DNA from: Zootoca vivipara
Lineage: Eukaryota
Reading direction: 5' to 3'
NCBI RefSeq assembly: GCF_963506605.1
Contig: NC_083277.1
Location: 18,476,001 to 18,540,000, forward strand
DNA: 64,000 nucleotides
Shown here: positions 1,611 to 60,964 of the stretch, piece by piece
Position numbering within the stretch: the stretch's first letter is position 1
How the letters are laid out: the number at the start of each line of letters is the position of its first letter
The notes under the pieces: model-generated
What the model saw: the letters and a program-made list of their open reading frames with translations, nothing else
Told to the model about the DNA's origin: nothing
The model's database searches: none
Program-made: the position numbers and the translations under genes

Positions 1611-1864
1611 ATGCCGAAACCTTGTGTTGGAGGCAAACTGTGCACAGACTTAGACTTGGGAGCGTCTGCAGAAGACGACATGGCCCAGTCTCTTGGCCTG
1701 GTCAATTTCTTCCTGTTCATCTTTTCAGGGATGCTCCTCTATCATTACAGCAATACCTTCAGATACTATTTCAGGGTTTGTTTCCTAAATATTTGGATGT
1801 TCAATATGACCTCCCTTGTACTTCCTGTTCTAGCTCTCCGGGGTCGAACGGTGGCAAATATGAG
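1611..1864 (+). CDS. AGPAT1/2-family 1-acylglycerol-3-phosphate acyltransferase-like gene, coding exon 1
   Basis: Pyrimidine tract plus AG ending at 1608, then gccATG at 1611. An alternative in-frame ATG at 1680 gives an AGPAT-sized N-terminus. Encodes hydrophobic segments ending LRGRTVANM(R), matching AGPAT1/2 RGRxVENM. Donor AG|gtgagt at 1864/1865. Spliced CDS from 1680 is 855 nt (284 aa) with no stop. Confidence 0.85.
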
Positions 1865-1988
1865 GTGAGTAAACTCTTACAGCTGTGTGGCTTTGTACAG
1901 TATCTTGCTTTTAGGGACTCTGTGCTCACATAGGAGTGTGCAATGTGACTCCTTCATAGCGGTCCAATAACTATTGAGCTTTTAAGCC

Positions 1989-2311
1989 CAGGGGTCAGCA
2001 ACCTTTTTCAGCCGTGGGCCGGTCCACTGTCCCTCAGACCATGTGGTGGGCCGGACTATATTTTTTGGGGAAAAATATGAATGAATTCCTATGCCCCACA
2101 AATAACCCAGAGATGCATTTTAAACAAAAGCACACATTCAACTCATGTAAAAACACCAGGCAGGCCCCACAAATAACCCAGAGGTGCATTTTAAATAAAA
2201 GGACACATTCTTCTCATGTAAAAACACGCTGATTTCCGGACTGTCCGCGGGCTGGATTGAGAAGGCAATTGGGCCACATCCGGCCCACGGGCCTTAGGTT
2301 GCCTACCCCTG
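1989..2311. mobile_element. hAT-Charlie-like MITE
   Basis: CAGGGGT...ACCCCTG ends; flanking TTTTAAGC repeat. Further copies at ~3458-3712 and ~45142-45473. Confidence 0.8.
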
Positions 2312-4131
2312 TTTTAAGCAGTGGTGTCCCGTCAGGGACTTTGGGGCAGGTGTCCAGAGCCACGCTCAGCAATATGAGAGGGTGAAGGTGGGACCAACTC
2401 CAGGAGGACTGCCTTGTCACATTTTGTGTAATTAGGCCCCCACCCCACTCCAGAGACACGATCCGGTTCACTTTTAAAGGCAAACCTACAAAATCTGCAC
2501 TTTCCAAAACAATATGCGAACTGAAACACTTCCATCCTTTTACATTTGCTCTTTCTGGATTTTGCAATGCACTTCTACAGACAAGTACTGTAATGTGTTT
2601 GGAAAAGCATACATTGCAGCAAAGGGTGCATATAGAAATGCATCTATTAGGGTAAAACATGCTAGCGGAAATTGCATACAAATATGTGTGCAGTAGGAAG
2701 AATTCACTTTAAAACCCTGGTGAATTTTCATGAGGACTTTTTAAAAAACTGGAAAGGTGGAGAACTGAACTTCAAACTGGCAAAATGAGAGAAACCGAAA
2801 TTGAGAGGCTCGCCCACCCTCAGTATGGAGTAGGGTTGTCCACAGGAAGAAAATCCCTTGCAGAAACATGGTGGCCAAACCATCCTCACGTTCCCTAGCA
2901 CATAGGGTCTAGCTATAGGTCTGCTGAGGGAGGGAGTGTCCATTGGACATGGTGGCTGGGGGTGGTGAGGACTGTACTGTAGTTCAAAACCTTTGGAGAG
3001 CAGCAAGTTGGGAAAGGCTGGCTTAACACCAGAAATGAGTTATGCCTTCTTGCTAAGCAGTCTTTTGTTGACCGGGTTGCCCATGATTGTGAAAGGAAGA
3101 GAGCTTCATGGTTGGGAAAGTGTTTGTTGACACTTAAGATACTCATCAGAGGCTGGAGGTGACATTCCTTCAGCTTCAAGGAGAGGCAGCTGTGACTTAT
3201 TCAGGTCTGATTGGGAGATTTAACCATTTGGTTTTCCTGCAATCCAGATCTAAGGGCCCTGTGCCTGCTATGTGCATCTCACGTGGTTTCTTCCATTTTT
3301 TTTCTACTGCCCCCCCCCCCCGGCCTGGAGCTTAGGGCAGTCTACAAGATGCTCCTCTTGTTATCTTCATGACATCCCTGTGAAGTAGCCAAAATGAGCA
3401 TCATGGCCAAGTAGGGATTTGAACCTGGGTCTCCCCAGTTGTGATGCAACAGTCTTACAGGGGCCAGCAAACTTTATCAGCAGGGAGCTGGTCCACTGTC
3501 CCTCAGACCTTGTGGAGGCCAGACTATATATTTTTTTGTGGGGGGGGAAATGAACGAGTTCCTATGCCCCACAAATAACCCAGAGATGCATTTTAAATAA
3601 AAGGGCACATTCTATTTCTGTAAAAACTCGCTGATTCCCGGACTGTCCGCAGGCCGGATTTAGAAGGCAATTGGGCCGGATCTGGCCCTGGGCCTTAGTT
3701 TGCCTACCCATGCACTACACCATACAGTCGTACCTTGGAAGTCGAAAGGAATCCGTTTCGGAAGTCTGTTTGACTTCCAAAACATTCAGAAACAAAAGTG
3801 CGGCTTCTAATTGGCTGCAGGAAGCTCCTGCAGCCAATCGGAAGCTGCGGAAGCCCCTGTGAATGTTTGACTTCCAAAAATAGTTCGCAAACCAGAACAG
3901 TCACTTCCGGGTTTGCGGCGGTCGGGAGCCAAAACGTTCGAGTCGCAAGGCATTCAACTTCTGAGGTAAAACATTCGAGAACTAAGCTGTTTGAAAACCA
4001 AGGTATGACTGTACTAGATTTCATCCTAACAGGCTGTAGCAGGCAACTGTCTTGCTTGTAAAGTTCTCGCTCCTGTCCTTCAACACCTTTGACCTTCCTA
4101 AAACGCCTCTGGTTTTGCTGCCTTGTTTTAG

Positions 4132-4265
4132 AGTCCTCCGCTTTGCCTTGCTGCCAGCGAAATACTTCCTCGGCATCAAATTCAAGGTGCAGGGTGCTCA
4201 GAACTTTAACCAGAAAGTGCCGTATGTTGTGGTTGCCAATCAGCAATGCAATGTGGACATCCTTG
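4132..4265 (+). CDS. AGPAT1/2-like coding exon 2 (motif I region, PYVVVANQQCNVD)
   Basis: ttttag| acceptor, G|gtacgt donor, 134 nt, phase 2 to 1. Same length as I recall for the human AGPAT1/2 exon. Confidence 0.9.
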
Positions 4266-4498
4266 GTACGTTGGTTGCATGCTTAAAAGCCTCAATCTCT
4301 TTCTCCCATCCAGTTGAAAGGGCTGGAGTGACCCACCTACAGCTTTACACATATTGCCCTGTGGCATCCTAATTGCAGTGGGCCACAGAGAGTAGCTACC
4401 TGCCCTGTAGAAATTTGCTGATAGAGAAAATATATTCAGATCATCACTGGTAGGAGGGCATGGACTACTGGCACAATATACCCTAATTTAGCCCACCA

Positions 4499-4789
4499 TG
4501 CAGGTGGCGCTGTGGGTCGGCAGTTCGAATCCCCGTGATGGGGTGAGCTCCCGTTGCTCGGTCCCAGCTCCTGCCAACCTAGCAGTTCGAAAGCACGTCA
4601 AAGCACGTCAACCTGCGGGAAGGTAAACGGCGTTTCCGTGCGCTGCTGTGGTTTGCCAGAAGTGGCTTAGTCATGCCGGACACATGACCTGGAAGCTGTA
4701 CGCCGGCTTCCTCGGCCAGTAAAGCGAGATGAGCACCGCAACCCCAGAGTCGTCCGCGACTGGACCTAATGGTCAGGGGTCCCTTTACC
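4499..4789 (+). mobile_element. Sauria SINE
   Basis: gcaggtggcgctgtgg...gcagttcgaaagcacg...ggtcaggggtccctttacc; TSD TAGCCCACCA. Confidence 0.85.
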
Positions 4790-5230
4790 TAGCCCACCAA
4801 AATGTCACAAAAATCACGTGAGATTTTTGGAGAGATTTTTGGAGAGTTTATTTTATCCTGGCCATAGGCAACAACGAATAGCATTGTATAAACATAGTGA
4901 AGAGGGCCTATGCATTGTGAGGGTAATGCTCCCTGCATCCAGGTGTATGTGTGAAGAGGCAGATAAAACACAATGCGCACATCCCTCTCCCTCCAAGGAA
5001 CTCAGGCTACCTTTAGCCTCACAACCACCCTGTGAGATAGGCCAGCCAAGAGAAGATGTGTCTTTGACCCAAGATAATCCCGGTGGCTTCATAGCTAAGC
5101 AGTGATTTGGTCCCAGGTCTCCCCAGCCCAAATCTAACTAATACACTACCTCTCTCGCTAGGGGCTGTAGGGAAGGGTGGGAGGAACTGCACAGCCAGAG
5201 TTCATTTTGACTGTCTTCCAATTGTCCCAG

Positions 5231-5406
5231 CAATGCTTCAGATTTTGCCGGAGAGAAGCACCTTCATTGTTAAAAAGGAGATCTTACGCTTTCTTACTGT
5301 CGGCATGGCCTGCTGGCTGAGCAGCTTCGTTTTCGTTGACCGCCGGAACAGGGAAACATCTGCCAATTCCATATCGGAAGCAGCAGGCGCGATGGTCCGT
5401 GACAAC
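5231..5406 (+). CDS. AGPAT1/2-like coding exon 3 (motif II, FVFVDRR)
   Basis: cccag| acceptor, AAC|gtgagt donor, 176 nt. MLQILPER...KKE...GMACWLSSFVFVDRR...MVRDN. Confidence 0.92.
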
Positions 5407-5454
5407 GTGAGTGTCAGGGAAATTAGCTCTCCAGGGAAATTAACTCTCGTTATG

Positions 5455-6085
5455 AATGGTTGAGGGAATTGGGAATGTTTAGCCTGGGGAAGAGAAGGCT
5501 GAGAGGTGATATGTAAGCTCATCTTCAAATATCTGAAGGTTGCCAAGACAGAGCAAGCTTGTTTTCTGCTGCTCCAGACAGCAGGACCCAAACCACTGGA
5601 TTCAAATTACAGTGGTACCTCAGGTTACAGACGCTTCAGGTTACAGACGCTTCAGGTTACAGGCTTCAGGGTAGTGGAGCGCTAACCCAGAAATAGTACC
5701 TTGGGTTAAGGACTTTGCTTCAGGATGAGAACAGAAATCGCGTGGTGGCAGCAGGAGGGCAATTAGCTAAAGTGGTACCTCAGGTTAAGAACAGTTTCAG
5801 GTTAAGAACGGATCTCCAGAACGAATTAGGTTCTTAACCCGAGGTACCACTGTACAAGAAAGGAGATTCCGACTAAACATCAGGAAGGACTTTCTGACAG
5901 TAACAGTGGAATGGACTCTTGGCGGGGGGGGGGCAGCAGCGAGGTGAACTCTCCTTCATTTGAGGTTTTTAAGCAGAATTTCGATGGCCACCTGTCGGAG
6001 ATTCTTTAGCTGCAATTCCTGCATTGCAGGAAGTTGGACTAGATAAGCCTTGGGGGTCATTTCTAACTCTTCAGTTCCATGATTC
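5455..6085 (+). mobile_element. CR1 3' end interrupted by a Tc1/mariner-type MITE (5610-5852)
   Basis: CR1 text ttcaaatta|caagaaaggagattcc is split at a TA. The MITE has CAGTGGTACCTC terminal inverted repeats. Confidence 0.8.
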
Positions 6086-6294
6086 CATGAGAGGGGTAAG
6101 GAGGCAGTGATGTCTGCCCAGTGAATGCACCAGCAGAGTCAATCCCATGCCGTCACTGGTACTTTTACACCATGCCAACCCTATTGCCACCTCGCCCATC
6201 CTGGCAAGCTGCAGCAATACGTATGGCAGATTACGTAAGTGTTTATTGTTGCCCTGTCTTGCCAATGGCAACCAGTGGGAGGACAACCCTATAC

Positions 6295-6742
6295 CTTACC
6301 TTCCAAGTCCCGGACTGCAGAATCCGGGACCGGCAGCCGTGTGACACCGGAAATTACGTTGACGTGACTTCCAGTGTCGCTTTGCCCTTCTATGGGCACC
6401 AAAAATGGCCGCCACCGCCTTCGAAAGTCGCTTGTACGCATGTCAGGAAGTGCGCCAACGCAACTTCCGGTGTCGCTCCGCCCATCTATGGGCACCAAAA
6501 ATGGCCGCCGCCAACACCGGAAGTCGCATCTATGCACTTCCGGACATGCGTAGATGCGACTTTTGAAGCCGGCGGCGGCCATTTTTGGTGCCCATAGAAG
6601 GGCAAATCGGAAAGAAAAAAATGGCCGCCGGCAGGAGAAAATAACGGAGAAAAGCGGGAGATGAAGTGATATGGGGGACCACGGGGAAAAGGTAAGTAAA
6701 AACGGGGGTTTCCCGGGGAAAACGGGGTACTTGGCAGCTATG
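6295..6742. mobile_element. Non-autonomous hAT element with internal subrepeats
   Basis: 8-bp TSD CCCTATAC; right TIR acttggcagctatg; ctatgggcaccaaaaatggccgcc occurs twice direct and once inverted. Confidence 0.8.
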
Positions 6743-6842
6743 CCCTATACACCACTTTGCATGTCTTGGAGGAAAGAAAATACAGTAGATAGATAGACAA
6801 CTAGGCAGACAGACACCCTTCCAAGCCATTATTGATATAGGC

Positions 6843-7089
6843 TGAAATATACTCAGAGTCGCGGAGTGATTTCATGCTCTTTATTGCAGCTCGTAAAACA
6901 GTGATAAATCCCCCCCCCAACCTCTGGCTTTATATACATTATTTACACAATGGGTCCCATCTGATTGGCTGATTTTGTTTCCCTCCTGGCCTGGGGCCTG
7001 ATTGGGCTGCTCCTGCAGGCCAATCAGGTTTTTTGCCTTCTAGGATCCTACCTGCCTATTGTTCTAGGATCCAAACTTAGTACATAACA
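6843..7089 (-). mobile_element. Solo LTR
   Basis: TG...CA termini, 5-bp TSD TAGGC (6838-6842, 7090-7094), CCAAT boxes, TATA-like and AATAAA on the minus strand. Confidence 0.85.
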
Positions 7090-7247
7090 TAGGCAGTGCT
7101 TTTTTTTCCTGGGGGGGACGCAGGGGTATGCATACCCCTAAACATTTTGTGAATCTAAGTTTGTCCTCATTGAGGGGCAGCATTTCAATATGAGTAGGAA
7201 AATGAGAGTACCCCTAAACATTTATAAAGAAAAAAAATCACTGGATA

Positions 7248-7498
7248 CAGTGGTACCTCGACTTACGAAGGCGATCCGTTCCATGGCGCTCTTCGTAAGT
7301 CAAAACCTTCGGATGTCGAAGCGTCCATTTTGCACATGCTTGAAGCGCGATTGATTTTGCGCTTTGCGCATGCGCAGACCGCGCACGCGCTTCTGCGCAG
7401 GCACAGAACGCGCGCAGGGCGAAAATACTTCCGGGTTTGCCGACTTCGTAAGTTGAAACCTTCGTAGGTTGAGGCATTTGTAAGTCGAGGTACCACTG
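7248..7498. mobile_element. Tc1/mariner (Tigger-like) MITE
   Basis: TIR CAGTGGTACCTCGACTTAC, TA TSD. Relatives at 3725-4011, 16041-16281, ~20771-21006, ~22295-22582, 30286-30386, 34205-34430, 35485-35715, 48392-48649 and 52711-52987. Confidence 0.88.
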
Positions 7499-7701
7499 TA
7501 TAGGCCATTATTTCTAGGCTAAAAAATGGTCTCGTTTTCTGTACTGAGTCCTCTGCAGTATCAGAGCAGATGAAAACTTAACTGGAAGAAATCACATCAG
7601 GGAGAGACTAAATTGTAGCCACTGAATTTGTCTGTGTTCCAGTTCTAGGTGAAAGAAAATTCATGTTTGAACATCCTTTCAGTATTCTCTTTCCCCTGCA
7701 G

Positions 7702-7800
7702 CTGAGAATCTGCATGTTCCCTGAAGGCACTGGAGACAATGACAGGGCTGGTTTGCCTTCCTTCAGACATGATGCCTTCCATCTGGCCATGAAAGCTCAG
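7702..7800 (+). CDS. AGPAT1/2-like coding exon 4 (motif III, FPEGTG)
   Basis: cctgcag| acceptor, CAG|gtgaga donor, 99 nt. LRICMFPEGTGDNDRAGLPSFRHDAFHLAMKAQ. Confidence 0.92.
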
Positions 7801-8846
7801 GTGAGACCATCCAGCTTCCAATCCTGTTGCTTATTCCTGCATCCTATTTACTAATAGTGGACTCATTCTCCGAGTGGCTATCCTAAGCTAAAAGGACCAG
7901 GCTTGTAGGAGCTGGGAGCATGTCCCACTTTTAAAGTTTATGTGCTGCAGTTGGATTGAGGTCAGCCGAATAGGGCTGCCAGCTGTTGCCATTAGGCAAA
8001 TTCACCTCAGGTTCAGTATAAGGTATTTTGTGGAGTAAGCCAGGTATTTCAAATCACAGGACAGATTACACTCTCCAAATCCTGCCAGGAGCTGCTGTAT
8101 TAATGCATACCCAAAGCAGTGAATGATCTTAAAAGGGTATTTTAAAAACACATAGCACTACAGCCCAGACAGACTGACCCCTTCCCCACCACTTCCCCCT
8201 GTGTGCTATTTTTCTGACACTCCACCTAATGCCAATTTGGGATGGGGCACTGGGGAAAGCCCCATTGCACTAGCCAAAGTCTTCGGACTCAGCGACATTA
8301 GTAAAGAAACAATGCTTTGAATGAGTTATAAACATGCAACACCAGATGGCGCCAGAGGGCAGAATATTTTTCTATGTGGTTTTCCATAGGGGTTTTTTCC
8401 TCTTTTTGTTATAACAATCTAATTTATAGCATTTTCCTCTCTCCTGTGAGCAGATTTGCCCTTTGTGTAGGCTTCTACCAGCAGGACTCATTCAATGAAT
8501 CTGGCCCATTAAAAAAACAGTAAAACAAGAGACTAAAAAGAAAAAAGTTCAACAAAACACCAAAGATGAAAAGCAGGGTGGGTGGGGAGCACCAATCCCC
8601 CCCAAACAACAACTTTTTGTGATAAGGATAGGGGAAACGCAGTGGAAAGTTTGAGATAACACTTGTTTTGATGTGATGTCAGCTGACCTCACAGTGAGCA
8701 AATGGAAAGTGAATGGTCAACAAGCAGGTTGTCTGGAAGTGTTCTTAGTCTGGGAGAGCATTAAAAAGCAGGACTCCCTTAGATTCAATATGGGCAAAGG
8801 TAAATTTCCATTTGACTGGTAGCTGATGTGCCTTATGTCCACGCAG

Positions 8847-8919
8847 GTGCCAGTTATTCCTGTGGTGATTTCCTCCTACCAGACGTTCTTCAACGCGAGA
8901 ATTAAAAAATTCACACCAG
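8847..8919 (+). CDS. AGPAT1/2-like coding exon 5 (motif IV, VPVIPVV)
   Basis: acgcag| acceptor, G|gtagct donor, 73 nt. VPVIPVVISSYQTFFNARIKKFTP(G). Confidence 0.92.
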
Positions 8920-8984
8920 GTAGCTGTGGGAAAGAAATGGGATGGGAAAGTGTTCTGGGACATGGCCTGAGACTGGAACTAGAT

Positions 8985-9121
8985 CAGGCATCCCCAAACT
9001 GCGGCCCTCCAGATGTTTTGGCCTACAACTCCCATGATCCCTAGCTAACAGGACCAGTGGTTGGGGAAGATGGGAATTGTAGTCCAAAACATCTGCAGGG
9101 CCGAAGTTCTGGGGATGCCTG
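8985..9121. mobile_element. ~137-bp palindromic hAT MITE (abundant family)
   Basis: TIR CAGGCATCCCCA, TSD AACTAGAT. Relatives at ~363-498, 12110-12245, ~12370-12498, ~23129-23264, 30861-30976, ~31606-31729 and 63808-63944. Confidence 0.88.
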
Positions 9122-9241
9122 AACTAGATGCTATGAAGCAAACTCATTTTTTTCCAAACTCCATGCTTGCTACCGAAGCTGGACTGGGGAAGGGGCTCCG
9201 TTTGCAGGGGATACAGCACTTATTTTGTTTTCTCTTCCAAG

Positions 9242-9429
9242 GGGAAGTGACAATCCAGATCCTTCCGCCCATGAAGACTGAGGGACTGAGCGCAGCTGAT
9301 GTCCAAGAATTTGCAGGCCGCGTGCAAGAGACTATGCTCCCTATTTTCCATGAGATCTCAGCGCTGAAGCAGGAAGGTGCGACTGGAGAAGATGCCTACC
9401 AAGCTGCCAATCGCCAAGTATCTTCGTAA
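9242..9429 (+). CDS. AGPAT1/2-like last coding exon
   Basis: Pyrimidine tract plus AAG| acceptor. EVTIQILPPMKTEGLSAADV...ML.IFHEIS matches the AGPAT1/2 C-terminus. TAA at 9427-9429. Confidence 0.9.
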
Positions 9430-14842: not shown

Positions 14843-14951
14843 TGTTATTCTCTAACCATGGTGGCATCCTGTCCCATGAAATTGCAGCAGGATTGCAGCG
14901 TGATTTTTCCTCCTCTTCCTTGGCAGCAGCAACAGCCGCTCCGCCGCAGCC

Positions 14952-15506
14952 ATGGGCCCCCCTGCCCACTTGGTCACAGGCCTGGTAGGAGCTGAGAAAT
15001 GGCACAGGGACACCCATGCCACAGTTCACGACACCTCCAAGCTGACGCAGCGCTGCGCAAAGGATGCCCTCGACCTTTGGTGTCCACTCCGAGCCCCAGG
15101 CCAGCCTGAGGAAACACCGTACGAGAAAAAGGTCAAGATCGACTCTTGGAAATTCAAGATAGATGTCCATCCAACTGGAGAGGTGACAAGCAAGCCACCG
15201 GAGGGGCCGGGGGTGACCCTGTGGAGGAGCAAAATCAAACCCCCTCCTTGGGTGTGCAAGATGGCCTTGCCCTGCTGCCGCGACTACGCCACCCTCAAGA
15301 ACAACGAGTATGTGGCCCAGTACGTCAGGGAGACGCGGCTGGTGGTGAGCCGCCTACGACAGGCTCTCCTGGAGATCAACGACCAGTTCAAGATGATGCT
15401 GCGTTTGAGATTACAAGTGGACGCCACGCTGGATCAAATCCGCCAGGGCCTCGTTACCAACAAGCAGAGCCAAGCCATTCGGGAGCACCGACCGGAAGTA
15501 GAGAAG
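14952..15506 (+). CDS. CCDC105: Coiled-coil domain-containing 105 / tektin-like 1, coding exon 1
   Basis: gccATGg start. KPPEGPGVTLWRSKIKPPPW and GLVTNKQS..IR.HRP..EK match human CCDC105 (TEKTL1) as I recall it. Donor AAG|gtgaga. The seven exons sum to 1437 nt (478 aa). Confidence 0.92.
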
Positions 15507-16361
15507 GTGAGACCTGCATCTCAACCCTACAGTCAACCCATCCTACCACTTACAAAACAACCAATGCTATCAGTGGCTACTCATCCTGATGGCCATGCTC
15601 TCCCTCCACTGTTGGAGGCGATATGCTTGCTTATGCATGTCACTTGCTGTTGTGCCCGGGTCCTCCTTGTTCGTTTCCTAGAGGCATCTGGTTGGGCGCT
15701 GTGAGAACAGGGTGCCTGGCTAGATGATCCTGCAGGTCCTTTTTACGTTCTTAGTCGACTCGCCCTGCACGTTCCCAACCACTAGATCTCAAACAGCAAG
15801 TGTGCTCTTGCATGACATTTATTGAGTACCTGAGCCTAAGTTTTTATTTCTTCTGAACACCTTGCGGGGCTCTCTGATTCACCTTGCGCTCCCACCCAAA
15901 GCATATAGTGCTTGCTTCACTGTACAGTACAGAACATACTGTACTGCAAAGCAGGCAACACACACACATATACACACACTAGGGCTGGGCGATATCTGGT
16001 TTTCAACACTGTGATATGTCACCAGCTAAACATTGCAATACAGTGGTACCTTGGTTTAAGTACTCAATTCGTTCCGGGGAGCCATTCGGTCCCTGAAAAG
16101 TACTTAAACCGAGTGCCATTTCTGTGTGTGTGTGTGGAGTGCTTCTGCGCATGCACGCGCCACGCAGATCGCTTCTGCGCATGCGCACGCCGTGGAACCC
16201 AGAAGTAAACACTTCCGGGTCTGCAGAGTACTTAAACCAAAAGTACTCAAACTGGAACATTCTCAAACCGAGATATGACTGTATACCAAAATATCATGAT
16301 GTTTGAAATAAGGATGGAGCACTGACTGGCTTCACAGTTTTCCCTGCATCATGGCTTTTGC

Positions 16362-25361: not shown

Positions 25362-25466
25362 ATGACTGACTGGGAGACAGCCCCTGCTGTGGCAGAGACC
25401 CCTGATATCAAGCTGTTTGGGAAATGGAGCACAGATGATGTGCAGATCAGTGACATCTCCTTGCAG
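25362..25466 (+). CDS. RPS5: 40S ribosomal protein S5 (uS7), coding exon 1
   Basis: ctctag|[39 protein letters not shown]. The five coding exons sum to 612 nt (203 aa). Confidence 0.98.
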
Positions 25467-25583
25467 GTATGGAACAAGGTTGTAAACAAACTGGGCAGAG
25501 CTCCAGGGCAGCGTTGTCTTCCGGTTGAGAATGAGCTTGCACCCATGCTTGTTCCCTAATACTTTTTCCTTATGCTTCTTTAG

Positions 25584-25832
<249 letters not shown>

Positions 25833-27003
25833 TGACATATTGTGAGATGGGCTTTTGATCCTAGAGGCTAGAGGGAGAGGAGATGGATAAACGCCCACCA
25901 GAAAGAAATATCTGGTGTGACTTGAGGCCTAGCTATGCACATTGAAGATTAGTTGACTAAGAAATGTGTTTTAGTCATCTAAAGAGCAAGTGAATGTTCT
26001 TTCTACTCACTAGCAGTGTATTTTGGTAAGAATAGTTCAGTGTGTGTTGATTCAGAAGGCAAGCAATAGAAAAATCTAAGTTCCTTCCCAACTCATCAGA
26101 CACAAATTGTGTTGACTGCTGTGGCCCATTACACACTTCCCATAATTTTCAGTGTGATGCAAAGTACTGTGTTTCTCAGAATATGTTTGGGTATTGGTCG
26201 AGGTAAAGGTTTTTAATCCATTCCCTAAGGTCCAATGAGATACATGGATTGCTAAATATGTATGTTACAATCTTATTTTCCCACTTGACAGATTAAAAAC
26301 TATCAGATCAAATTGGTTCTGACTCACATCCACTTGAGAGTTCTTAAAGTACTCATAAATGAAATTGTGGGTTTCCTAATACATATAAGTGATTTGTTCC
26401 TAAAATCAATCTCCATTCTTGCAAGGTTTCCAGAACTACCATAGTACGACTTGGTTTGTGTTGGGTTTTTAGCAGGTGTTAAGCAGTTAGCATTTTCACA
26501 AGTGTTTTAATTGTATTATTAGACAGCTCTAGTGAAGGTTTCCACTACCAAGCCTTCTGGATATGTTGGGGTGAAAATTCAGCTCCCCCAAAGTACAGAA
26601 TTGCATAGGTTTGCATTTACTGGGCTATCCTGATTTGCTATGCATTTGTGTTTCCTATATTATTAGTAATACTCTTATATACTAAGAGCATTTATGTGAA
26701 TTAACTTTTGGGCAGGTCTCCCTTTCACTTGGGATGAAATTTGCAGGTTTTGTGGATGGGCTTACATGATTCTTCTCAGTTCCTTAAGTATATATTACCT
26801 TTGTTGTTTAGCCTTGTTTTTTTGTTTTTAGTTTGGAGGAATTGTTTCTCTCATTGGAAGGATTGTACCAGTGGTAACTGTAGAATAGTTCATAGACCAA
26901 TTTTATTGTCTAGGAAGATGGGAGGCCTTGTCACTAACTTCCTGTAAGTCAAATAAAAAAATTCCTTCAGTAGCACCTTAAAGACCAACAAAGTTTTTAT
27001 TTT

Positions 27004-27043
27004 GGTATGAGCTTTCGTGTGCATGCACACTTCTTCAGATACC
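27004..27043 (-). ncRNA. Minimal type I hammerhead ribozyme motif in an RPS5 intron (antisense to RPS5)
   Basis: Minus strand: GGUAU-CUGAAGA-A-GUGUGCAUGCACAC-GAAA-GC-UC-AUACC with a perfect 5-bp stem I. It sits in a ~100-bp insertion (26952-27050) with TSD ACTTCCTGTAAGTCA. Confidence 0.75.
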
Positions 27044-27220
27044 TTAAATGACTTCCTGTAAGTCATTTCTGGTATATGAACCTAGAATATTTTTTGCTAA
27101 TCTTCACTTGTGTGGGCTGTGTCCATTATACAGAAGGGGAAAGTGAGTCTGAAGAGATGTGTCTTATGCAAGTCATGATATTGGCTGTGGTTAGAAGCTG
27201 TACGTTACTCTGTGGAGTAG

Positions 27221-27415
<195 letters not shown>

Positions 27416-27561
27416 TGACCGTGGAATGAACTCCCTTGGGAGGTGGTTTTTAAGCAGAGGTTGGATGGACAGCTGTCGGGGTGCTTTAGTTGAGATTCCT
27501 GCATTGCAGGGGGTTGGACTGGTTGATCCTCAGGGTCGCTTCCAACTCTACAATTCTATGA

Positions 27562-27744
<183 letters not shown>

Positions 27745-28551
27745 TAAGAGCAAGTTCCTTCAGTGGGGTTTAAGTAGCTTCCTGACAGTGGAACATTCTA
27801 AGCTTTTTTACTGTTATTCTAGTGTGTGGCTAATTAATTTCCTGTTTTGGAAGCAGTTTAACTGCTTCTTCTTCTTAATTTTGAAAACATTTTTCTAGTA
27901 GTGTCGTGTTCTTGTGTTTTATGTTTTTAAGTTTTATGCAAGAGCAGCGCTTTCCTGAAAGGCGGTGTAGGAATAAGTAAATTGTTGTCACTTGGAAATC
28001 AGCAGCAGGGTTTTCAAAGCCAGATGCAGGATGGTAAATAGGGCTCTCATTATAACTCCAGGAGTGAATTGGTTTGCGGTGATAGTTGTCCTAAACTGCA
28101 AAATATACAATTGCAGCACTCCTTGAAGTTTTTAGCTGTAAGTTGCCTAAGAGATGCCTTGTGCAGCAGTAGGGACAGTTCCTGAAACTGAGGCATTGTC
28201 ACAGCAGCCCACAGTTTCTGTATGTCCAGCTGTTAACAGCATTCTCAGTCAACATAATCCCTCTTGTAAGATGGTTGCTTGACATGCAACCTGGTATTTG
28301 GCCCAAAAATCTTAATGGTGTTGTGGGATTGAAATCATAATCTTAAATAGCTGAAAAGGTATCCATGATGTGTGTACACCAGTTGCTGCAACTATTCTGT
28401 AGCAACTCCTTCAGCTGTTCATTGGAAGGGTGACTGTGTGAAGGTGTATGTGACTGGAATCGCCACCTATTGGGAAGACGTTATTTGAGCAAATTGCTTC
28501 AGGCTGCTTGTGTGTGTATGTTTGTATCTCACGGTTGCTTCCCATTTCTAG

Positions 28552-28620
28552 GGTTCCTCCAACTCTTATGCCATCAAGAAAAAGGACGAGTTGGAGCGTG
28601 TGGCCAAGTCCAACCGTTAA
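28552..28620 (+). CDS. RPS5: RPS5 last coding exon
   Basis: GSSNSYAIKKKDELERVAKSNR*, 69 nt. Confidence 0.98.
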   Translation, partial: GSSNSYAIKKKDELERVAKSNR

Positions 28621-56187: not shown

Positions 56188-56433
56188 TCACTTGTAGAGC
56201 AGGTGAACGCGGCTGCCGTCGCAGTTGTTTCGCCCCAGCTTGTCGGCCTGCTCGGCCACCAGGCAGCGGACGAGAGGGAGGCTGGGCTGGTAGAGGTTGG
56301 GGCCGGTGGCTGCCGAGGCCGAGGCCGAGTTGTTGAAGTGGTTGTCGGCGGCACAATTGGAGGAGCGCCGCCGCGACCGGAGCTGCTGCCGCTCTTTCAG
56401 CTGTTGCTGGAGCTCAGAGACCCGCTCTTCCTT
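56188..56433 (-). CDS. GABBR1: GABBR1 last coding exon
   Basis: KEERVSEL...QQLRSRRR (RSRR ER-retention motif)...CDGSRVHLLYK*, the GABBR1 C-terminus. Confidence 0.96.
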   Translation of the reverse strand, partial: KEERVSELQQQLKERQQLRSRRRSSNCAADNHFNNSASASAATGPNLYQPSLPLVRCLVAEQADKLGRNNCDGSRVHLLYK

Positions 56434-56450
56434 CTGTTGGGGGGTGGGGT

Positions 56451-56837
56451 GGTAAAAAAGAAAAAAGGTAAAAAGGACCCCTGGACAGTTCAGTCCAGTC
56501 AAAGGCGACTATGGGGTCGCGGCACTCATCTCGCTTTTCAGGCCAAGGGATTGTCCACAGACAGCTCTCCGGGTCATGTGGCCAGCAGGACTAAACCGCT
56601 TCTGGTGCAACGGGGCGCCGTGACAGAAGCCAGAGTGCACAGAAATGCTTTTTTACTTTCCTGCCACAGCAAAATCTATTAATCTACTCGTACTGGTGTG
56701 CTTTCGAACTGCTAGGTTGGCAGGAACTTGGGGAGAGCAATGGCATCTCACCCTGTTGCGGGGATTTGAACTGCTGACCTTCTGATTGACAAGCGCAAGA
56801 GGCTCAGTGGTTTAGACCACAGCACCACCCATGTCCC
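56451..56837 (-). mobile_element. Sauria SINE abutting the last GABBR1 splice acceptor
   Basis: Head gggacatgggtggtgctgtggtctaaacc (minus strand); tail of TTTACC-like repeats. Confidence 0.85.
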
Positions 56838-58187
56838 TTATTGTTGGGTGGGGGGGCAAGGAGGGGAAACGGGTGGCTGCAAGTGACTTAGAAGCATGAA
56901 AGAGGCGTATATCTCAATACCCCCAGGGCTGCCTCTCTTTCTTCAGGACTACGGGATCGTAATCTGAGGCCGTTCTTTGTGTGTCTCCTCTGTGTGAGGT
57001 CCAGAGGGTGGCAAGATGAGAATGGGGCCTTTTCTGCGCTGGCTCCCCATTTGTGGAATGCTCTCCCCAGGGAGGTCCGCCTGGTGCCTTCATTACATAT
57101 CTTTAGGCACCAGGCGAAAATGTTCCTCTTCAACCAGGCCTTGGACGGACTAATATTCTACAGCCTTTTAAATGTGTTTGTGGGGAGGGAGGGGGCTTGT
57201 TTTGTTGGTTTTGTTTTAATAACAAAAACAACTGCCATCAGGCAGGCCCAGCCAGCAGGGGCAATGGTCAGGGATGATGGGAATTGTTTTTTTTAATATT
57301 GTAGCATCCGGAGGGCCGCAGGTTGTCCACTCCTGTACGATTCCCCTCTGCAAACACACCCAGGAAGTAATTAACAGCAGGCCCTAAGGTTGCCTGGCAA
57401 CCAAATCAGGCGTCGAGTCGTACCATATTTATTGGTACATTTGGTTTTCTCAGATCGTACGCCAAGTACTTTGAATGCTTAAGGAAGAGTTATAGGAACA
57501 GTAAACATCGTAACACAGCCTTGTGTGCCCTGCGGGTGAGATCGTGCCAAGTCATACTCAAGAGTAGACCCACTGGTTATAACAGGTCTACTCTGAGCAG
57601 GACTAACATTAGGTGTCATCACCCCTTGTAGTACATCTGATGGCTTCACGGCTGGTGTGCGCCTTTATGTTTTATTGTATTTAATCTGATTTTAACTGTC
57701 GGTGTACTATATCCTGGGACTTTTCACTGCAGAGCGGGTTTATCAGTAAAAGCCAATGAAAAAAATTCATTGGTTTGAGGTTTTCTTTCTGTTTTGTTTT
57801 AAAACATCTCCCCCCCCGCCCCATCTCAGCCAGGAATCTCAGCCAAAGCATCCATGACAGATGGCCCTCCAAGCTCCGGTTAAAAACCTCCAAGGAAGGA
57901 GAGTCCACCATCTCCAGAGGCAGATTGTCCCATTTGCAGCTTTTTAGCTTAGAAAAATGATGTGTAGCGGGTGACATGACCGAAATGTATGAAATTATGC
58001 ATGCCATGGAGAAAGTGAATTGGGAAAAGCTTTTCTCCCCCTCTCATAGCATTAGAACTTGAGGATATTCAACATAGCTGAATGTTGGAAGATTCCAGGC
58101 AGATAAAAGAAAGGGCTCGGTCATGCAGCACATAGTCAAACTATGGAACTCACGGCCACAAGAGAGGCCAGTGACCACCGCTGACAG

Positions 58188-58708
58188 TACTCCTCACCTG
58201 GAGTACTGTGTCCAGTTCTGGGCACCACAGTTCAAGAAGGATACTGACAAGCTGGAACGTGTCCAGAAGAGGGCAACCAAAATGGTCAAAGGCCTGGAAA
58301 CGATGCCTTATGAGGAACGGCTTAGGGAGCTGGGTATGTTTAGCCTGGAGAAGAGAAGGTTAAGGGGTGATGATGATAGCCATGTTCAAATATATAAAAG
58401 GATGTCATATAGAGGAGGGAGAAAGGTTGTTTTCTGCTGCTCCAGAGAAGGGACACGGAGCAATGGATTCAAACTACAAGAAAGAATATTCCACCTAAAC
58501 ATTAGGAAGAACTTCCTGACAGTAAGAGCTGTTTGACAGTGGAATTTGCTGCCAAGGAGTGTGGTGGAGTCTCCTTCTTTGGAGGTCTTTAAGCAGAGGC
58601 TTGACAGCCATATGTCAAGAATGCTTTGAAGGTGTTTCCTGCTCGGCAGGGGGTTGAACTGAATGGCCCTTGTGGTCTCTTCCAACTCTACGATTCTATG
58701 ATTCTATG
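58188..58708 (+). mobile_element. CR1 LINE 3' end
   Basis: [35 protein letters not shown]...[14 protein letters not shown], with (GATTCTAT)n tail. Shorter copies at ~33524-33710 (-) and ~61058-61243 (-). Confidence 0.93.
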
Positions 58709-59002
58709 ACTTGGATAGCTTTAAAAGAGGATTGGGCAAATGCATGGAGGAGAGGATTACTGATGGCTACTAGCCATGATGCCTATTGTTCTACCTCCAC
58801 TGTCAGAGCCGCTTCTGAATATCAGTTGCTGGAATCCCCGGGAGGAGAGAGGGCTATTGTTCCCAGATCCTGCTTCCAGGCTGGTTGGCCACTGTGAGAA
58901 CAGGATGGCTGGACTCGATGGGCCAGATCCAGCAGGGTCCTTCTTACTAGCCCCCAATGGCAGGTAGCACGGGGCAAGGGGGAAGACACACACCCAGCTT
59001 CA

Positions 59003-59218
<216 letters not shown>

Positions 59219-59625
59219 TCAGCCACACGACTGCACCTCAGTGTCAAGAGAGGAGAAGTGTCGCTGGCAGCAGGAAGGGGAAGAAACTCTGTTGCTGGGC
59301 CAAAAGTGCCAACCTCAGGTCTGCAGCCCTCGTTGGGCTGTGAAAGCAGAGGAATTTTTCGGGGGGAGATTAGAGAGATTCCTAAAAATGTGGAAGTGGG
59401 GGGGGGGGCGGCGGCATTTGGGGGGAAAATGCTTCTCTATCTGGGCCTTGGGACTCCCTCCAAGCCTCATCCCTCAGTGGGCTGTTGTTTTGGTTTTGTA
59501 AAACTCCCAAGCAACACTAGGCAAGTCCTTTAAAAGAGGATTTTGGTAAGTGAAACCTGAGATTCTTGGGCATGCGCTAAGTTATGCTGCAAACCACGCT
59601 AGGAGCCAGTTGCTACCAATGCTCA

Positions 59626-59922
<297 letters not shown>

Positions 59923-60054: not shown

Positions 60055-60254
60055 NNNNNNNNNNNNNNNNNNNNNNNNNNNNNNNNNNNNNNNNNNNNNN
60101 NNNNNNNNNNNNNNNNNNNNNNNNNNNNNNNNNNNNNNNNNNNNNNNNNNNNNNNNNNNNNNNNNNNNNNNNNNNNNNNNNNNNNNNNNNNNNNNNNNNN
60201 NNNNNNNNNNNNNNNNNNNNNNNNNNNNNNNNNNNNNNNNNNNNNNNNNNNNNN
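60055..60254. other. Assembly gap (200 N)
   Basis: Run of N. Confidence 1.
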
Positions 60255-60891: not shown

Positions 60892-60964
60892 TCACTGATA
60901 GCTCAGTCGGTTGAGCATGAGACTCTTAATCTCAGGGTTGTGGGTTTGAGCCCTACGTCGGGCA
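60892..60964 (+). pseudogene. tRNA-Lys(CTT)-derived pseudogene or SINE head
   Basis: TAGCTCAGTCGGTTGAGCATGAGACTCTTAATCTCAGGGTTGTGGGTTTGAGCCCTACGTCGGGC. The anticodon arm is intact, but the acceptor stem is unpaired and the T-loop is TTTGAG. Followed by CR1-tail-like sequence. Confidence 0.8.

Follow-up and report, generated by a model that had tools for sequence, protein, structure and literature searches.

Human AGPAT1 (lysophosphatidic acid acyltransferase alpha, LPAAT-alpha) and the bacterial acyltransferase PlsC are the closest described relatives of the gene reported here, and the mutagenesis facts on them were taken by way of reviews, not from the primary papers. In the available part of one review, the substitutions H104A, D109N/E, R149A, E178Q/D, G179L and R181A/K abolish the activity of human AGPAT1, the His has the role of general base, acceptor binding falls to motifs II and III and an effect on acyl-CoA binding to motif IV, and H306G in the glycerol-3-phosphate acyltransferase (GPAT) of E. 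coli lowered Vmax and did not abolish it (PMC4280512). In the available part of a second source, K105 and R159 of Thermotoga maritima PlsC bind the phosphate of lysophosphatidic acid (LPA) (PMC6688108). Here we analysed 64,000 nucleotides of the Zootoca vivipara genome (contig NC_083277.1, positions 18,476,001 to 18,540,000, forward strand; hereafter the window), which hold an AGPAT1 paralogue with the catalytic His replaced by Gln. Judged from its sequence, this spliced, single-copy paralogue, predicted to be LPAAT-dead, probably persists as a non-catalytic, membrane-anchored binder of acyl-CoA or lipid.

The six exons of the gene joined to 307 codons and a stop, with AG/GT at all exon ends and no internal stop, just as the original prediction described them (Table 1). 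The ATG at 1611 is in frame with the ATG at 1680 and lengthens the product by 23 codons, but the true and conserved start is probably the one at 1680, where most full-length orthologue models start, giving a product of 284 amino acids. Two spliced contigs start at 1645 and 1659, and contig ends cannot prove a start. Residue numbers in this text are those of the 307-residue frame, and subtraction of 23 gives those of the 284-residue frame. A database protein with the label Zootoca vivipara (P0121) holds residues 25-307 of the window product identically. A pyrimidine tract and AG at 1570-1610, before the ATG at 1611, resemble a splice acceptor and suggest an upstream non-coding exon.

The residues studied in human AGPAT1 fit by their spacing Q122, D127, R167, E196, G197, T198 and G199 of the window product. 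Motif I reads NQQCNVD, motif III reads FPEGTGD with GGA at the Arg codon, and the equivalent of PFKxGAF is SFRHDAF, from 7759; the motif I Asp, the Phe and Arg of motif II, Glu-Gly-Thr of motif III and the Pro of motif IV are kept. Each of these predicted motif changes was present, and two of them proved less general than the first: the motif III change (R199G) is common to the window and Lacerta agilis and is absent from 3/3 Podarcis proteins, which keep EGTR, and P207 of the PSFRH stretch is polymorphic within the species (Leu in run X2). H-to-Q itself is not among the reported mutants, so the inactivity is our inference; by analogy with the human mutants, the lacertid protein very probably has no LPAAT activity.

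The CAG codon was confirmed in other sequence data. Contigs of X1, X2 and X3 join exons 2-3, 3-4, 4-5 and 5-6 at GT..AG, and one X3 contig spans exon 1 through exon 3 and is identical to the window, with 0 differences in 4130-4264. X19 agrees with the window at every base of 4090-4440, and the window may derive from it. X10 and X13, which carry two other organism labels, have no difference listed at 4241-4243, and X10 is spliced. In all, CAG recurs in four further run assemblies, and X7 does not cover exon 2. Recurrence in other runs and in all lacertid database proteins ruled out a sequencing or assembly error, as was predicted. The spliced joints of the contigs indicate that the gene is transcribed, X1-X3, X10 and X13 being guessed to be RNA and not on record as such, and raw X23 reads cross two junctions at very low depth. 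With an open frame, canonical sites and spliced contigs and reads, we found no stop, frameshift, broken splice site or silence of a pseudogene.

The same data bear on one alternative, in which the gene encodes an ordinary LPAAT that tolerates its substitutions or is the product of assembly errors. It would agree with the match to Pfam PF01553 (93 bits against a cut-off of 23), with the databases, which name the protein as an AGPAT alpha-like enzyme, and with the reduced Vmax of E. coli H306G in the partly available review. However, CAG recurs across runs and species, H104A and R181A/K of the human enzyme are inactive according to the same review, and His is present in every scored row of 50 canonical-type sequences, which we chose ourselves and called canonical by sequence. 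We consider this alternative very improbable.

The original prediction proposed a check of whether H-to-Q is shared, and it is fixed in lacertids: where His is expected, the window and 5/5 lacertid database proteins have Gln, all with NQQCNVD. Snake proteins have Leu there (15/15), and of 17 further squamate proteins 15 have His and that of Hemicordylus has Gln, the model of Salvator being without exon 2 and not scorable. His is kept in 4/4 crocodylian proteins, with all motifs intact. On a tree of 30 rows from which the motif columns and Salvator were left out, three changes are needed to explain the His state. A single origin of H-to-Q was ruled out, as the approximately unbiased (AU) test rejects the five Gln rows as one clade (p-AU 0.003). 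By these alignments the catalytic His is lost three times, in lacertids (Q), in Hemicordylus (Q) and in snakes (L).

Other residues were altered in other lineages. Changes were found in geckos (K144T, R167D/H/N, R199K), Varanus (R167Y, R199Q), Pogona (G197D) and Tiliqua (R167C, T198P), and in total 7/10 squamate lineages are altered at a residue essential in human AGPAT1. The snake motifs (e.g. P0015, P0019) are nearly frozen, with NLQCS[VML]D in 15/15 and E[GS]HR in 14/15, where a new His stands at the Thr position of EGTR and could be a relocated functional residue, judging by its conservation. Three raptor proteins that resemble a separate bird AGPAT1-like paralogue, P0102, P0110 and P0114 (Circaetus, Harpia, Morphnus), have NDQTSLD and FPEGTCSH, so that His and the motif III Arg were lost once more, independently; two of the three are flagged low quality.

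These patterns could also mean that the protein is a transferase with a new function, which exchanged LPA for a neutral acceptor, or acquired a new chemistry through a Cys at +2 of the lost His or through the His of snake FSEGHR. All seven gecko proteins (P0008-P0011, P0014, P0361, P0362) keep His and Asp and have the three phosphate-binding residues replaced (K to T, R to D/H/N, R to K), which would suit an enzyme whose acceptor carries no phosphate, if the alignment is a guide. The Cys at +2 is found in 5/5 lacertid and 15/15 snake proteins, the snake E[GS]HR is frozen, and Asp and Glu are kept clade-wide. On the other hand, no replacement His is common to lacertids (H211 is Asn in two Podarcis), Hemicordylus lost His and has no such Cys, and the Asp and Glu may be structural. 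Such a new transferase is improbable, though less so than an unchanged LPAAT.

Phylogenetic analyses placed the gene in an AGPAT1 lineage. In a tree of 69 rows that we chose, leaving aside three isoform models and the majority of bird rows, the 25 squamate proteins form one clade (support 100/98) that roughly follows the species tree, with Crocodylus as its sister (98/93). Both nest in an AGPAT1-derived clade of sauropsid paralogues together with two bird groups and a tandem pair described below; the support of 97/95 is for this sauropsid clade and not for its branching relative to amniote AGPAT1. The tree placement and the shared exon structure identify the window gene as an AGPAT1 paralogue and not AGPAT2, which narrows the predicted AGPAT1/2 affiliation. 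The orthologues span geckos, scincomorphs, lacertoids, iguanians, anguimorphs and snakes. Because the sister gene is crocodylian, the duplication predates the split of crocodylians and squamates and is a sauropsid one. There was no turtle, tuatara or Pantherophis orthologue among the matches listed, which does not show absence. The available part of a published study reports that AGPAT1 is duplicated in the major histocompatibility complex (MHC) region of brown anole and makes no statement on motifs (PMC9679377).

Exon 3 and exon 6, each searched against the own genome, hit one and the same set of five loci: the window gene, AGPAT2, a canonical AGPAT1 that shares the contig of the window gene at a distance of 7 Mb, and, on a different contig, two genes in tandem. 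The window gene is single-copy, and the four other AGPAT1/2-type genes all keep NHQS and EGTR. The predicted possibility of a squamate expansion was not upheld, as one copy in the genome and a crocodylian sister ruled out a squamate-specific or tandem expansion and the duplication is sauropsid. The tandem AGPAT1-like pair (G000:C13:23274800-23312100, L009-L014) has intact motifs and near-identical C-terminal exons, and groups with Hemicordylus, Pantherophis and bird paralogues.

Exon 4, which is the most variable exon among lacertids, has 99 nt in the window gene, three more than the 96 nt of each of the other four genes of AGPAT1/2 type in the genome. The predicted extra codon is therefore real, but it is not tied to the loss of His. 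It is also found in Salvator and in Rhineura, which has the codon with its His intact, and this ruled it out as a part of the inactivation; by this comparison the codon predates the His loss. Podarcis muralis and Anolis have isoform models in which exon 4, with motif III, is skipped in frame. An isoform of similar kind exists for human AGPAT2.

Changes at the active site were compared with those at the conserved core on the squamate-plus-crocodile tree. Eight functional sites, named from papers, took 31 parsimony changes against 15.9 expected from 46 sites that are at least 90% conserved in the 50 canonical-type sequences (P=0.0075), and the 18 conserved sites after motif III took 9 changes in total, or 0.5 per site, so that the core and motif IV, the acyl-CoA motif, hardly vary. 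Six catalytic or acceptor residues, which are 98-100% conserved in canonical-type sequences, were kept 41 times in 10 lineages, where the pace of variable sites predicts 40.2, an expectation inflated by the use of the plurality as stand-in ancestor. The data do not reject a release at the root of the squamates, with P=0.07 for the number of lineages that keep all six. In the snakes, which have no His, family-conserved sites took 39 changes against 67 expected (P=0.0004), and the constraint in geckos is about as strong (P=0.0009). In nine matched snake species the paralogue took 134 changes and AGPAT1 33, so it evolves fourfold faster. Purifying selection after the loss of His was seen in snakes, and there was no signal of it in lacertids.

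This last result leads to the main alternative, that selection on the lacertid gene, as a redundant duplicate, is relaxed and the gene is drifting to loss, with the His change early and the frame not yet hit. The same site test gave 17 changes against 18.8 in lacertids (P=0.37), and the window lineage is the longest lacertid branch (0.093 against 0.02-0.04). The two alleles of Zootoca vivipara differ at 6/284 residues, and 5/6 of the coding differences from the window listed among run contigs are non-synonymous. All of this speaks against a retained binder, and drift is further favoured by the identity of 86-91% between lacertid genera, by the isoform models that skip exon 4 and by the low read depth of X23. 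At position 7746 three alleles (G, C, T) are present among the runs, and both non-window alleles encode Ser. Exon 2 of X13, read by hand, has 2 synonymous and 3 non-synonymous among its listed differences.

Against drift, the frame is open in 5/5 lacertid species found. It is unlikely to stay so under neutrality, since 7-15 disabling hits are expected at a tree length of 0.1-0.15; this length and the indel rate are assumed, loosely from X13, where about 123 intron bases have 5-10 differences, and we found nothing usable in the literature on neutral divergence between lacertids. Exon 2 has just 3 changes in 44 residues in lacertids, the snakes without His show clear constraint, and the gene is retained in ten squamate lineages. 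Drift to loss appears unlikely, but it comes ahead of the two alternatives above.

There are more points against a non-catalytic binder that is retained throughout the clade. Broken orthologues would be absent from the protein databases, which weakens the count of open frames. Three lineages, Rhineura, Sceloporus and Elgaria, have all six residues where 1.0 would be expected (P=0.07), and some of these orthologues may be active enzymes, as far as motifs tell. The snake models (n=15) include 3 without the last exon, 1 without the first exon and 1 flagged as low quality. The AlphaFold2 model has a pLDDT (predicted local distance difference test) of 93.5 and its best match is PlsC 5KYM (Z 20.7, root-mean-square deviation 3.6 over 235 residues), but it was made for the second allele P0001 (278/284 identical) from an alignment rich in active relatives and shows compatibility with the fold, not function. 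Together with the PF01553 match and the N-terminal membrane helices, this PlsC-like fold places the protein in the AGPAT/PlsC family, and a search of the ESM Atlas gave just ordinary AGPAT clusters.

We nevertheless favour the non-catalytic binder for the lacertid protein. In this scenario, the sauropsid duplication would have given an extra copy of AGPAT1, and catalytic constraint would have relaxed at or near the squamate ancestor because the genome still had intact AGPAT1, AGPAT2 and two more paralogues to supply the activity, after which each lineage would have lost different residues. Without His there would be no base to activate the acceptor hydroxyl, without the motif III Arg the LPA phosphate would be poorly held, and for both reasons no phosphatidate would be made. 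The N-terminal helices would anchor the protein in the membrane of the endoplasmic reticulum, a location assumed from AGPAT1, while the retained motif IV and the acyl groove might bind acyl-CoA or lipid and buffer the substrate or hand it to active acyltransferases. The wider proposal, in which the duplicate no longer had to acylate LPA from the squamate root onwards and instead gained a conserved role in handling lipids, without catalysis, in the whole group, is more tentative, with chances slightly short of even. The predicted pseudo-enzyme stands as far as His was lost with frame and transcription intact, and this is broader than lacertids; a ratio of non-synonymous to synonymous rates (dN/dS) near 1, which the original prediction had set against it, has not been cleared for lacertids.

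If the proposal is true, there is a clade of pseudo-enzymes in the vertebrate GPAT/AGPAT family with three convergent losses of His and with living intact, remodelled and dead states. The clade is a natural series, being intact in crocodylians, Sceloporus, Rhineura and Elgaria, with the phosphate site remodelled in geckos and His lost three times. With it one can test directly whether the AGPAT fold has any function besides catalysis and by what route a duplicated enzyme becomes a binder. It also means that the enzyme labels of the databases are probably wrong for lacertids, snakes and Hemicordylus. The scope is reptiles. Pseudo-enzymes are known in many families, but our literature search, which covered titles and the starts of abstracts with most subscription journals outside it, found no paper on this clade and none describing an inactive AGPAT1 paralogue or a pseudo-enzyme among AGPAT1-type acyltransferases. 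Neither accessions nor enzyme names were matched in the supplement of a Lacerta agilis femoral-gland proteome (PMC9000839), whose entries go by human gene names, and hence it gives no tissue evidence. Two supplement files of PMC8075977 had no match for the gene.

The neighbourhood of the gene was also inspected. About 7 kb upstream there is a C2H2 zinc-finger gene, which is very similar in sequence to a zinc-finger stretch fused to the orthologue model of Phrynocephalus, a likeness that suggests conserved local gene order. The upstream region (G000:C2:18433100-18470700, L019-L023) holds three C2H2 zinc-finger genes, two of them on opposite strands with near-identical 3' ends. Downstream there are RPS5, a RING gene, which we take to be RNF225-like from its position adjoining RPS5, and the gene of GABA-B receptor 1. 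In mammals, the GABA-B receptor subunit 1 gene lies in the extended MHC.

Table 1. Positions of the AGPAT1-like gene, its altered codons and the other features in the window.
Feature	Position	Strand	Remarks
Coding exon 1	1611(1680)-1864	+	two N-terminal membrane helices
Exon 2	4132-4265	+	134 nt; holds motif I NQQCNVD
CAG (Gln) replacing catalytic His (human AGPAT1 H104)	4241-4243	+	fixed in lacertids
Asp of HX4D	4256-4258	+	kept by all squamate orthologues scored
Exon 3	5231-5406	+	176 nt; Lys equivalent to TmPlsC (T. maritima PlsC) K105 kept at 5272-5274; motif II Arg at 5341-5343
Exon 4	7702-7800	+	99 nt; motif III FPEGTG(D), eroded PFKxGAF loop
GGA (Gly) replacing EGTR Arg (human R181)	7732-7734	+	common to Lacerta, not Podarcis
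Exon 5	8847-8919	+	73 nt; intact motif IV VPVIPVVISSY
Exon 6	9242-9429	+	ends at TAA; 3' untranslated region of transcript reaches at least 9593
Tektin-like open frame, probably exon of tektin-like gene	14950-15520	+	tektin-like features, ESM Atlas 0.95; no Pfam match
Ribosomal protein S5 exons	25400-28620	+	Pfam Ribosomal_S7
RING-finger open frame, 256 aa	49277-50044	+	RNF225-like by position
3' exons of GABA-B receptor subunit 1	56190-59920	-	sequence match
200-base assembly gap	60055-60254		
Partial tRNA-like Rfam match, probably short interspersed element (SINE)	60899-60956		

Among known systems, the window gene has in common with AGPAT1 six coding exons of matching lengths and phases (134, 176 and 73 nt), the motif spacing and PF01553; it differs in the loss of the HX4D His and the EGTR Arg, in the eroded PFKxGAF and in an exon 4 that is one codon longer. 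The crocodylian AGPAT1-like paralogue (P0022 and relatives) is its sister group with a motif I of HQSNVD type, but its motifs are intact in 4/4 proteins and it is likely an active enzyme, to go by these motifs. Thermotoga maritima PlsC (5KYM) has the same two-helix anchor and alpha/beta domain, and its K105 has a kept equivalent in the window protein, whereas PlsC keeps the catalytic His and R159 and the identity is about 24%. ZDHHC13 and the companion paralogues of SCPL-AT (serine carboxypeptidase-like acyltransferases) are likewise described as duplicates which lack catalytic residues and yet are retained; they have unrelated folds, and the titles of their papers report functional work.

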